Shown piece by piece: positions 1-3,000 of a DNA stretch of 27,206 bases. Each line of letters opens with the position of its first letter. Position 1 is the stretch's first letter. The DNA lies in IMG/VR virus record IMGVR_UViG_2695420523_000013; one strand, given 5' to 3'. Made by a program: the position numbers. Origin of the DNA: a virus (taxonomy: Duplodnaviria; Heunggongvirae; Uroviricota; Caudoviricetes).

Positions 1-3000
1 GGTGTGTCATACACCACGTCAGCGGTGGGGACGGGATACTGGTTACTGCAGCTGCTGGACAAAGTCTCTCCGTCCCAGTGGGTGGCGATAGGTGTGCTGG
101 GGAGTCTGCTGTTTGGCCTGCTGACGTATCTGACTAACCTGTATTTCAAAATTAAAGAGGACCGTCGTAAGGCGGCGCGGGGAGAGTAAAGCGATGAAGA
201 AAAAATACGAACTGGTTGTTAAAGGGATAAATAATTACCCGGATAAGATTACTGTTACTGTGGCACTGGAAATTGGTGGGTATCCGTCACTGTTGTTGCC
301 AGATGTGGCGATTAGTCTTGACCGTACTGAAGGTGCCACGCTGGAGTTTTACGAAGCTGAGGCGAAAAAGCAGGCGAAGCAGTTTTTCATGGATGTTGCT
401 GCCGGGTTATGTGAAGGGGATGGTCCGTTGCCGGAAAAGCGGCCCCGTAATTTTAGAGGCGCAGGATGTGTTGATAACCTACAGAGGAAAACTACCGGGA
501 ATAATTACTGGTTCTCTGAAGACTCCACCGCTGGCCTGAAGACTTAACATATCCAGGGATTTGAAATCGATAAACCCTGATAAATATCCATGAACGCAAA
601 AATCAGATACGGCCTGTCGGCTGCCGTTCTGGCGCTGATTGGTGCAGGGGCGTCTGCGCCTGAAATCCTCGACCAGTTTCTTGACGAAAAAGAAGGTAAC
701 CACACCACGGCATACCGTGATGGTGCGGGTATCTGGACCATCTGCCGCGGTGCCATCCTGGTGGATGGTAAACCTGTCGTCCCGGGCATGAAGTTGTCGA
801 AGGAAAAATGCGACCAGGTTAACGCCATTGAACGTGATAAGGCGCTGGCATGGGTGGAGAAAAACATCAGAGTGCCACTGACCGAACCCCAGAAAGCGGG
901 GATTGCGTCATTCTGTCCGTACAACATTGGTCCCGGTAAGTGTTTCCCGTCTACGTTTTACAGACGAATTAATGCAGGTGATCGAAAAGGTGCCTGCGAA
1001 GCGATTCGCTGGTGGATTAAGGACGGTGGCAGAGACTGCCGTATCCGCTCAAATAATTGCTACGGTCAGGTATCCCGGCGAGACCAGGAAAGTGCGCTGG
1101 CGTGCTGGGGAATCGACAGATAAGCAGAATATTTTGCTGAAAAATGACGTTGGCCAGCGCGGACGGATAACACGAAATCCTGCGAACTGGCAAAATGTAA
1201 GTGAATAAAGTTAGGCAGATTATTTTACGCAGAGGCACCGTAATGGTGCCTTTGTCATTTCTGCGCTTCGCACAAGCGTAAATAAACCAAAGAACCTTTC
1301 AGGATGAGCCCTGGTGGATAACCGGCAGTGGTCTGGTTAACCCTCTTTGGGCTGGTTATTCCTGTGCGCAGGGTTCATCACTAAAAGGAATCAACCATGA
1401 AAGAGATGATTTCTGTCGATCATGAAATATCCATGAGTAGTCTGGATTTTCTGAATAACATTATTAATCCAGCCCGGGCAGAAGCCGGAGAAGTCCCTCA
1501 TGAACCGCGTAAGTTTCTTGCAAAAATTGAGGATGAGCTAGAGCGTGATGGAACCGGAAAAAAATTCCGGTTAAACAATAACCAGACAAGAACGGCATAC
1601 TATGATCTGGATTTTGACCAGATGATGCTCGTTGGCATGAGGGAGTCAAAGGCCGTTCGTCGTTCTGTGCTGGCAAGACTCAAAGCGATGCATGGTATTC
1701 AGATCCCCCGGACTTTACCTGAGGCGTTGCGATTTGCGGCAAAACTGGCTGAACAGAAAGCAGTGCTGGAAAATCAACTGGCAATAGCAGCGCCGAAGGC
1801 TGAATTTGTTGATAACTATGTTGGAGCATCTGGTCTGATGGGATTCCGGGAAGTTGCTAAGTTACTCGGTATCAAAGAAACCGATTTCCGGCTGTTTTTG
1901 TTGGAGAACGGAATAATGTATCGCCTCGCTGGAAAAATGACGCCTTACTCGCATCACCTGGATGCGGGGCGGTTTAGCGTGAAAACGGGCGAGGCGGGCA
2001 ATGGTCATGCTTTTACGCAGGTTAAATTCACCCCAAAAGGTGTTCAGTGGATTGCTGGTCTGCTTGCTGCATGGAGAGCTACCGCAGCATGAAGATGATA
2101 AAAATGGACTGGAAATTTTTGCTGGTCTGGCTGATTCCGTTTTTATGGGTGGTTGCCCGGTTAATTACTGCTATTAAGAGGTAAAGATGTCAGACAAACT
2201 CATAATGCTGGCGAAGGGCCTTTGTGTAATCGTCGGTATTTCATTTTCACTAATGCTGGTTGCTCTTTTTCTTTCCATAACCTGGATGGCGTTGACTTCG
2301 GCAGGGCTGGTGGGGTGAGCATAAACCGAATGCTTTCCACGTTTACCGTTATTCTGCTGGTGGTCTGTGGTGCGCTGTGGCTGGCAACAGACCATTACCG
2401 TGATAACGCCATCACCTACAAAGCGCAGCGCGATAAAAAAGCCAGAGAGCTGGAGCTGGCAAACGCAACCATTACTGACATGCAGCAGCGCCAGCGTGAT
2501 GTTGCTGCGCTTGATGCCAGATACTCAAGGGAATTAGCCGATGCGAGAGCTGAAAATGAAACTCTGCGTGCTGATGTTGCCGCTGGTCGTAAGCGCCTGC
2601 GGATCAACGCCACCTGCTCCGGTACCGTGCGTGAAGCCACCGGCACCTCCGGCGTGGATAATGCAACCGGCCCCCGACTGGCAGACACCGCTGAACGGGA
2701 TTATTTCATCCTCAGAGAACGGTTGATGACAATGCAGAAGCAGCTGGAAGGGGCACAGGACTATATCCGCACTCAGTGCCTGAACTAAGTTTTGCTGATG
2801 CGCCGTATCGTCGCTGTATTCCCTCATTAACAGAGACCGCAGCCCGACAGGGAGACTCCTCTGCGCGAGTGTGCGGGGATAATCAAAAACGATACACACC
2901 GGGGTTTACCGCGTTAACGGAGCGCGGCGTTGTCCCCTCATGGTCGCTGGTCCGGTACGATGGTGGAAGAAACCGAACGTTCATTTCTCGTTATTTGTCA

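Follow-up and report, generated by a model that had tools for sequence, protein, structure and literature searches.

What occupies the space between the endolysin gene R and the spanin gene Rz in the lysis cassette of an Escherichia coli prophage, and do the tiny open reading frames (ORFs) found there encode proteins of their own? The question is raised by a 27,206-nucleotide stretch of viral DNA (IMG/VR record IMGVR_UViG_2695420523_000013; hereafter the window), in which R and Rz are separated by 1.2 kb that carry an antirepressor-like gene (ant) and two small hydrophobic ORFs (A and B). An initial annotation regarded this arrangement as an interrupted lysis cassette. We suggest instead that the 5′ part of the window is the late lysis region of a lambdoid E. 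coli prophage of the Shiga toxin (Stx) type, that the R-Rz junction holds a mobile three-gene module consisting of ant, a truncated phrog_6632 member (A) and a phrog_4906 member (B), and that A and B are probably late membrane proteins that tune lysis; taken as a whole, we give this explanation a probability of about 0.6. Gene identity and architecture are well supported, and the lysis-tuning role of A and B is a low-confidence guess drawn from their position and coupling. All coordinates given below are positions in the window unless a locus is named, and the lysis genes all lie on the plus strand.

Protein-coding genes of the module

The first gene of the module, ant (1397 to 2092, plus strand), is preceded by a Shine-Dalgarno (SD) sequence (AAGGA, 1385 to 1389). 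Its 231-amino-acid product matches the Pfam ANT/KilAC family (PF03374) with 97.9 bits over residues 125 to 224 (curated cut-off, 25.3 bits), shares 36.7% identity with P1 Ant1 (residues 22 to 219), and reaches an E-value of 2.6e-58 against PHROG 63 ('anti-repressor Ant'), although this last alignment takes in only profile positions 122 to 359 of 431. The domain search proposed in the initial annotation, which had called the protein antirepressor-like, has thus returned the antirepressor domain, and judged by its sequence ant is a genuine antirepressor-family gene. No Pfam match to the BRO-N, KilA-N or AntA N-terminal domains, which are present in many but not all family members, was found in residues 1 to 124, and the protein has no sequence match to a solved structure in the PDB. 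Our deep comparisons relied on a diverged copy of the ant-A-B module (locus L092). Measured against it, the ratio of non-synonymous to synonymous substitution rates (dN/dS, omega) is 0.17 for ant, compared with 1.26 and 1.75 in the other two frames, and the KilAC half is nearly frozen (pN 0.02, pS 0.45). The window's ant thereby shares with the KilAC antirepressors (P1 Ant1; PF03374; PHROG 63) both the domain and the strong purifying selection on the C-terminal domain, but it resides in a late lysis operon rather than in an immunity region, and it shows no evident control of the antisense-RNA or Mnt/Arc type. For the action of such proteins on repressors, the Ant proteins of P22 and Phi24B (PMC3064807) and the Gifsy antirepressors (PMC3121763) serve as analogues, and from this analogy we infer that the window's Ant would inactivate a CI-type repressor. 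The Phi24B ant that Fogg et al. studied lies before qut and is not the same gene as that of the window (PMC3064807).

ORF A is joined directly to the end of ant. Its frame is open from position 2047 and offers two in-frame ATG codons: the one at 2095 yields the 29-residue peptide (2095 to 2184) of the initial annotation, while the one at 2089, which overlaps the ant stop codon (ATGA), yields a peptide of 31 residues. The end of the ORF stands as described; the start is most likely ATG 2089, and we treat A as the 31-residue, single-pass microprotein encoded at 2089 to 2184 (plus strand). A is an N-terminally truncated member of phrog_6632. It matches this family with an E-value of 2.6e-4 over profile positions 20 to 43 of 45, and thus covers only the transmembrane (TM) segment and the C-terminal part, whereas full-length relatives comprise 44 to 45 amino acids. 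Where ant is absent from the R-Rz interval, phrog_6632 genes begin with GTG or TTG behind a GGGAG SD sequence and encode an N-terminal segment of the form (I/F)DFSKLIRE(L/I)R. In ORF A the 3′ end of ant stands in place of the DFSKLIRE(L/I)R segment, so that a recombination junction falls inside A. The earlier suggestion that the small ORFs could be remnants of such a junction consequently fits the N-terminus of A, but the short form with its ATGA overlap is itself conserved together with ant in the diverged L092 module.

ORF B (2187 to 2318, plus strand) encodes 43 amino acids, and its SD sequence (AAGAGG, 2176 to 2181) is positioned 5 nucleotides before the ATG, within the last codons of A. 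The initial annotation had reported this ORF, its ribosome-binding site and that of ant, and all three are found at or near the places it had given; its prediction of one TM segment in each small ORF likewise agrees with simple hydropathy analysis, which finds a single TM-competent hydrophobic segment in A and in B. In B, this segment spans residues 12 to 28 (mean Kyte-Doolittle value, 2.74) and has two positive charges (lysines) on its N-terminal side and none on its C-terminal side, so that B should insert into the membrane in an N-in orientation. B is a full-length member of phrog_4906 (E-value 3.3e-24), with its residues 1 to 43 corresponding to profile positions 7 to 49 of 49. The family is narrow. 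It consists of 106 protein clusters, and nearly all entries with a source name are assigned to E. coli. A profile search against 1.84 billion representatives returned just 29 matches, many of them fragments, with two divergent full-length B proteins among the finds. Across 55 protein clusters, the core of B, CVIVGISFSLMLVALFLS, hardly varies. PHROGs labels both phrog_4906 and phrog_6632 as being of unknown function, and NCBIfam has no family for any of the small peptides. The two ORFs had been expected to be missed by standard annotation; this does not apply to B, which PGAP annotates (RefSeq WP_001280922.1), and it applies to A in PGAP, which skips this ORF in an O103 prophage nearly identical to the window; the annotation of phage PhiR5_1 includes both A and B. 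A derivation of B from a duplicated 5′ end or TM domain (TMD) of Rz was considered and rejected: local nucleotide alignments of four B alleles with six Rz 5′ ends were no better than those of shuffled sequences, apart from a few marginal z-scores of 2 to 3.

Small ORFs of this kind could be translated spacers that merely carry the SD or re-initiation context for Rz and that persist after insertions broke an ancestral R-Rz overlap; the peptides themselves would then be unimportant, and A would be a junction remnant. The missing family N-terminus of A accords with this idea, and so do comparisons among close relatives, in which omega is near 0.6 to 0.9. For B, these close relatives give a pairwise dN/dS of 0.55 (19 synonymous, 38 non-synonymous and no stop events); the C-terminal third of the protein is near neutral, and the core codons 13 to 30 alone have an omega of 0.38 (p = 0.05). 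The deep comparisons, for which the contigs of the two divergent full-length B proteins were drawn in, reveal frame-specific purifying selection on the amino-acid sequence. Between the window and L092, dN/dS is 0.19 for A (Fisher p = 0.0012) and 0.33 for B (p = 0.004), compared with off-frame values of 0.95 to 1.51. Across six lineages, most deep B pairs fall between 0.16 and 0.44, with p-values down to 1e-5, and deep A pairs range from 0.07 to 0.29, again in a frame-specific manner. The near invariance of the B core and the 50 to 67% identity at which phrog_6632 members recur in Salmonella and Pseudomonas phages speak against dispensable peptides as well. Both small ORFs are preserved as open frames in several genomic settings, and the comparison of synonymous with non-synonymous changes, to which the initial annotation had tied their coding status, comes out in their favor: ant, A and B are real protein-coding genes under purifying selection. 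The same type of analysis disposed of another candidate. The 33-residue ORF 'C' (MTSAERWLLLLSGW...), present at 2721 to 2822 of locus L006 (E. coli O104:H4 2011C-3493) and at related loci, is probably a spurious frame, since its dN/dS is 1.09 in its own frame and 0.08 in the overlapping frame, which encodes a 60-residue phrog_1115-type protein or a fragment thereof.

The R-Rz junction as a cargo slot

Is the lysis cassette of the window broken by these genes? Upstream of the module, R (590 to 1123, plus strand) encodes a phage lysozyme (Pfam PF00959) with a Gly/Ala-rich N-terminal segment resembling a signal-anchor-release (SAR) domain (YGLSAAVLALIGAGASA), and the gap between R and ant amounts to 273 nucleotides; the R region is 83% identical at the nucleotide level to the rrrQ region of the K-12 prophage Qin. 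Downstream of the module lies the i-spanin gene Rz (2315 to 2788, plus strand; Pfam PF03245, 169.6 bits), whose product has an N-terminal TMD (LSTFTVILLVVCGALWL). The gene for the o-spanin lipoprotein Rz1 (2541 to 2726, plus strand) is embedded within Rz in the +1 frame, as in other two-component spanins; this ORF (MRELKMKLCVLMLPLVVSACGS...) has a lipobox-like VSAC motif and corresponds to ECs_1216 of strain Sakai. Both Rz and Rz1 are intact, and the initiation of Rz is built into the end of B. The cassette is thus not interrupted, as had been proposed, but is loaded with cargo, and the R-Rz junction is a cargo slot. In phage lambda itself, R and Rz are adjacent. The window has the holin, the endolysin and the embedded two-component spanin in common with the canonical S-R-Rz/Rz1 cassettes of lambda, DLP12 and Qin; in DLP12 and Qin, however, the R stop and the Rz start overlap by 4 nucleotides with nothing between them, whereas in the window 1.2 kb of cargo intervene and B, not R, has become the coupling partner of Rz.

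A survey of 80 IMG/VR loci with a related Rz, together with loci from GenBank and RefSeq and the window itself, allowed us to delimit the interval from the R stop to the Rz start in 81 loci. All 81 carry a loaded spacer, and their 55 distinct interval sequences represent about seven layouts: KilAC-type ant followed by A and B (the window); an unrelated ant of 189 residues with a 48-residue B (O157 Sakai, YYZ-2008); A and B followed by a fragment of a 60-residue protein family and a 28-residue ORF (O104:H4); a 60-residue ORF with B; a single phrog_6632 gene for 44 to 45 residues; ant, B, the 28-residue ORF and a 255-residue ORF; and a decayed A with B. At least one small hydrophobic ORF abuts Rz in every layout, and the slot peptides are mosaically related to each other through the common elements WKF(L/I)L(V/I)W and IRWW and ends of the type L(I/V)xA(I/L)K. 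The premise of the initial annotation that R and Rz are normally adjacent is hence correct for the K-12 prophages Qin and DLP12 but not for prophages of the Stx or enterohaemorrhagic E. coli (EHEC) type. Megablast searches detected B-like DNA in 1543 of 5426 complete E. coli genomes, including loci without ant, and the entire ant-A-B module at an identity of at least 99% in about 200 of the complete genomes.

Close counterparts of this gene order have been annotated before. Phages YYZ-2008, phi-O153 and Lys8385Vzw possess, as the window does, a class II holin, a SAR lysozyme, an antirepressor, a small hydrophobic ORF and Rz/Rz1, and over the lysis stretch the window shares about 99% identity with Lys8385Vzw and with E. 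coli O103 RM8385. The Sp5 prophage of E. coli O157:H7 Sakai (VT2-Sakai) carries the series ECs_1212 (holin), ECs_1213 (endolysin), ECs_1214 (antirepressor), ECs_5707 (a hypothetical protein homologous to B) and ECs_1215/1216 (Rz/Rz1). Sakai and YYZ-2008 differ from the window in that their unrelated antirepressor is of the AntA/N-terminal type and in that the 48-residue variant of B is coupled directly to it, with no A, whereas the window combines a KilAC-type antirepressor with both A and B. The arrangement and its genes are therefore already known as sequence, from the Sakai annotation, from RefSeq in the case of B and from PHROGs for both families, and, the role of the small proteins aside, there is little unusual about the finding.

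The module also occurs in a lysis cassette of a different kind. L092 represents a cassette of the phiP27 type: it has two other holins, its endolysin is a soluble GH108 enzyme, and Rz is missing. After the GH108 endolysin gene it contains an ant-A-B module that is about 75 to 80% identical to that of the window. A small lipoprotein gene (phrog_7528), an HNH gene and a terminase gene follow on its 3′ side. In phiP27-type cassettes (L092, 2640 to 2822; L098, 2649 to 2804), this lipoprotein of 51 to 60 residues, with the lipobox LLVGC, stands after B in the place of the spanin. The same type of cassette in E. coli E9 contains a 93-residue ORF, a decayed ORF of the 60-residue family, B and the lipoprotein, and lacks ant. 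Since B follows the endolysin in both cassettes, its link is to the slot after the endolysin gene, in two lysis cassettes that are unrelated, and depends neither on Rz nor on a SAR endolysin nor on ant.

A family that comes and goes in this manner invites a competing explanation, in which A and B would have nothing to do with lysis and would be cargo of the moron type: small inner-membrane proteins directed at the host or at other phages, for instance by superinfection exclusion, by blocking DNA entry or by modulating a host membrane protein, with the R-Rz gap being merely tolerant of insertions. The presence/absence polymorphism typical of morons is indeed found, with about seven contents between conserved R and Rz genes and the module recurring in the phiP27-type cassette. 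Moreover, the slot accepts unrelated cargo (two kinds of ant, the 255-residue ORF), and the junction between the holin gene and R likewise holds a DUF1327 gene. Full-length members of the phrog_6632 family are found in H-19B and in Salmonella phage SPN3UB, where the gene is unannotated and lies between the endolysin gene and Rz with the same hairpin upstream, but other members reside in late clusters devoted to functions other than lysis. A full-length gene of Salmonella phage SEN34 (L099, 1795 to 1932) is located among baseplate genes and behaves as a portable unit, since the hairpin and the GGGAG leader in front of it are those of its counterparts in lambdoid lysis cassettes. Another full-length gene, from Pseudomonas phage YMC11/02/R656 (L100, 1798 to 1944), lies next to tail genes and is followed by a second small TM ORF (phrog_12997). 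These locations characterize the A family as a portable late-operon microprotein gene rather than a dedicated lysis gene. What argues against moron cargo is that members of the B family were found nowhere outside the post-endolysin slot, that PADLOC reported no defence-system match, and that no promoter belonging to the cargo was detected while a terminator-like structure precedes it, so that expression in the lysogen, where exclusion normally acts, is not expected. We consider this explanation unlikely.

Junctions, transcription signals and flanking genes

How the module is read can be judged from its junctions. Two nucleotides separate the stop codon of A from the start of B, and the stop codon of B overlaps a GTG at 2315 (GTGA) that probably is the start of Rz, as judged from sequence comparison; PGAP has chosen ATG 2330. 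Three related loci have ATT at the position equivalent to 2330, so that their Rz must start at the GTG. Initiation at GTG 2315 gives a protein beginning with MSINRMLSTF..., restores positive charge before the TMD, and brings ATA AAC CGA of the window into alignment with ATG AAC CGT, the start (MNR) of other Rz alleles. An SD-like GGGG sequence for Rz lies within B and belongs to a G-run formed by the last B codons (CTGGTGGGGTGA). The initial annotation had B ending just before the Rz start; the close junction was seen correctly, but the TGA of B overlaps the probable GTG start instead of preceding ATG 2330. In other Rz alleles, the small ORF stops 1 to 7 nucleotides before the Rz ATG. Through these tight or overlapping junctions, the four genes from ant through A and B to Rz are linked to one another in translation.

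Such junctions are also what translated spacers serving Rz would require, and in every layout the last small ORF either ends within 1 to 7 nucleotides of the Rz start or overlaps it, with last codons (GGGGTGA or TGGTGGTGA) that make an SD-like sequence. Degraded copies point in the same direction. B is frameshifted in L067, L073, L080 and L051, and an internal stop codon disrupts A in L007 (2482 to 2577), in each case next to an apparently intact Rz; A and B are consequently dispensable in at least some prophages or are decaying in cryptic ones. Set against this are the deep comparisons described above and the conservation of A and B in the phiP27-type cassette, in which no Rz follows them. 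On balance, the notion that the peptides are unimportant relays for ribosomes strikes us as quite improbable.

Between R and ant, the post-R spacer (1124 to 1260, plus strand) contains an intrinsic-terminator-like hairpin (1229 to 1255) with a T-rich tract after it; the hairpin folds into an 11-bp stem, and the region has a z-score of −3.4. About 90 nucleotides 3′ of the R stop are kept in all types of R-Rz interval and are followed in all of them by one of two alternative structures composed of a GC-rich hairpin and a T-run. A terminator retained inside the lysis operon may serve to keep transcription in the lysogen from running on into ant and Rz. The spacer was also considered as a leftover of a Qin-type spanin gene, an idea that we rejected because the homology to Qin ends about 10 nucleotides past the R stop. 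Further downstream, a structured leader precedes ant (1296 to 1387, plus strand) and forms a long hairpin (minimum free energy, −40 kcal/mol; z-score, −2.9), the 3′ base of which reaches into the beginning of the ant SD sequence. A leader of about 110 nucleotides is common to the ant loci of the KilAC type, those of the AntN type and L092, and includes one compensatory pair (U-A to C-G). This hairpin may be a translational control element.

On the plus strand, no sigma-70-like promoter could be identified for ant, A or B, the number of hits being below that expected from shuffled sequence, nor was a promoter-like site found near A or B on either strand. Morons typically have a promoter of their own upstream and a terminator downstream; the only terminator-like hairpin here sits upstream of the cargo. 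The terminator-like hairpin after R and the lack of a detectable promoter suggest that the cargo depends on Q-antiterminated late transcription. These signals also bear on the idea that A or B is a lethal peptide, either the toxin of a type I toxin-antitoxin pair or an auxiliary holin. Both peptides are small, hydrophobic and single-pass, and they are encoded within a lysis cassette, as holins and antiholins are. However, a type I toxin would call for an antisense RNA, and positions 1 to 4000 of the window have no Rfam match at E-values up to 1, neither to a known RNA element nor to a known family of antisense small RNAs; no promoter-like site was found near either ORF; homology of A or B to holin or toxin families was not detected in Pfam, nor was holin-family homology in NCBIfam; and the cassette already has a pinholin. 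We judge this idea to be very improbable indeed.

The pinholin in question is a class II holin of the phage 21 type, the 3′ part of whose gene occupies positions 1 to 189 (plus strand; Pfam PF04971 Phage_holin_2_1, E-value 6.5e-29); its start is lost at the edge of the window, and the gene measures 216 nucleotides in relatives. Between it and R lies the DUF1327 gene (194 to 547, plus strand; Pfam PF07041, E-value 4.6e-41), which is labelled as YdfR family in annotated relatives and makes the holin-endolysin junction a cargo slot too. Its family match is limited to residues 1 to 85, and the C-termini of its relatives vary (103, 117 and 211 amino acids). On the other side of the cassette, at about 2790 to 3240, the window is short of some 740 bases that follow Rz in its closest phage and genome relatives (L001 and L005) and that encode a Rha-family regulator and a TonB-like ORF. 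Here, Rz is followed by a YlcI/YnfO-like ORF on the minus strand (2981 to 3241) and then by an HNH gene (3223 to 3684).

Possible roles in lysis and toxin release

Small membrane proteins that adjust the behaviour of holins or SAR endolysins are familiar components of lysis systems; the antiholins S21-71 and S107, LydB of P1 and the 'releasin' gp25 of Mu are examples. We know of no sequence similarity of A or B to any of these four proteins. B occurs together with SAR endolysins and with soluble ones, so a role like that of Mu gp25 is not implied.

The explanation that we favor is that the module would be transcribed only when Q-antiterminated late transcription sets in and would be translated in step with the spanin. 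The Ant protein made at this late stage may, by analogy with better-studied antirepressors, inactivate CI-type repressors and thereby commit the phage firmly to lytic growth or induce other prophages resident in the same cell. A and B would insert N-in into the inner membrane, act late in infection and most plausibly tune one of the membrane steps of lysis, be it the triggering of the holin, the proton motive force, the release of the endolysin or the action of the spanin; in addition, translation of B may help to deliver ribosomes to the Rz start. It is tempting to go further and to view small single-pass proteins abutting Rz (phrog_4906 and, in other alleles, phrog_6632 and the related 60- and 28-residue proteins) as an unrecognised fourth class of lysis-cassette component that sets lysis timing or the activity of spanin or holin. 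We put this forward as a tentative and rather doubtful proposal.

Several observations weigh against assigning A and B a function in lysis and against parts of the accompanying explanation. The company that B keeps, SAR or soluble endolysins, with or without Rz, implies no single phage partner. The A family, with its members at the SEN34 baseplate and Pseudomonas tail loci, is not lysis-specific, and frameshifted B genes and a stop-containing copy of A coexist with intact Rz genes. Close relatives show weak selection on B (omega 0.55 to 0.69), and the lineage L094 is exceptional in having an omega above 1 for this gene. The window's Ant lacks a recognisable N-terminal DNA-binding or BRO-type domain. 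Literature searches by accession, locus tag and topic retrieved no functional work on the A or B ORFs and neither experiments nor expression data for them, and the supplements of ribosome profiling (Ribo-seq) work on EHEC Sakai do not contain the Sakai homologue.

What the analysis mainly documents is a common and already annotated arrangement, for which it provides corrections to current annotations, namely where A begins, the probable initiation of Rz at a GTG and the spurious 'C' ORF in related genomes. Roughly a quarter of the complete E. coli genomes, among them reference EHEC strains, carry microprotein genes welded to the start of the spanin gene, and so do classic phages such as H-19B. 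In Stx-converting phages, the timing of lysis sets when and how much Shiga toxin gets out of the cell. If small proteins of this kind do constitute a fourth class of lysis-cassette component, they would also set the timing of toxin release in these phages. If it is true that A and B modulate lysis, or that the late-made Ant cross-induces neighbouring prophages, this would bear on toxin release by Shiga toxin-producing E. coli and on the interactions between the prophages that such strains harbor.

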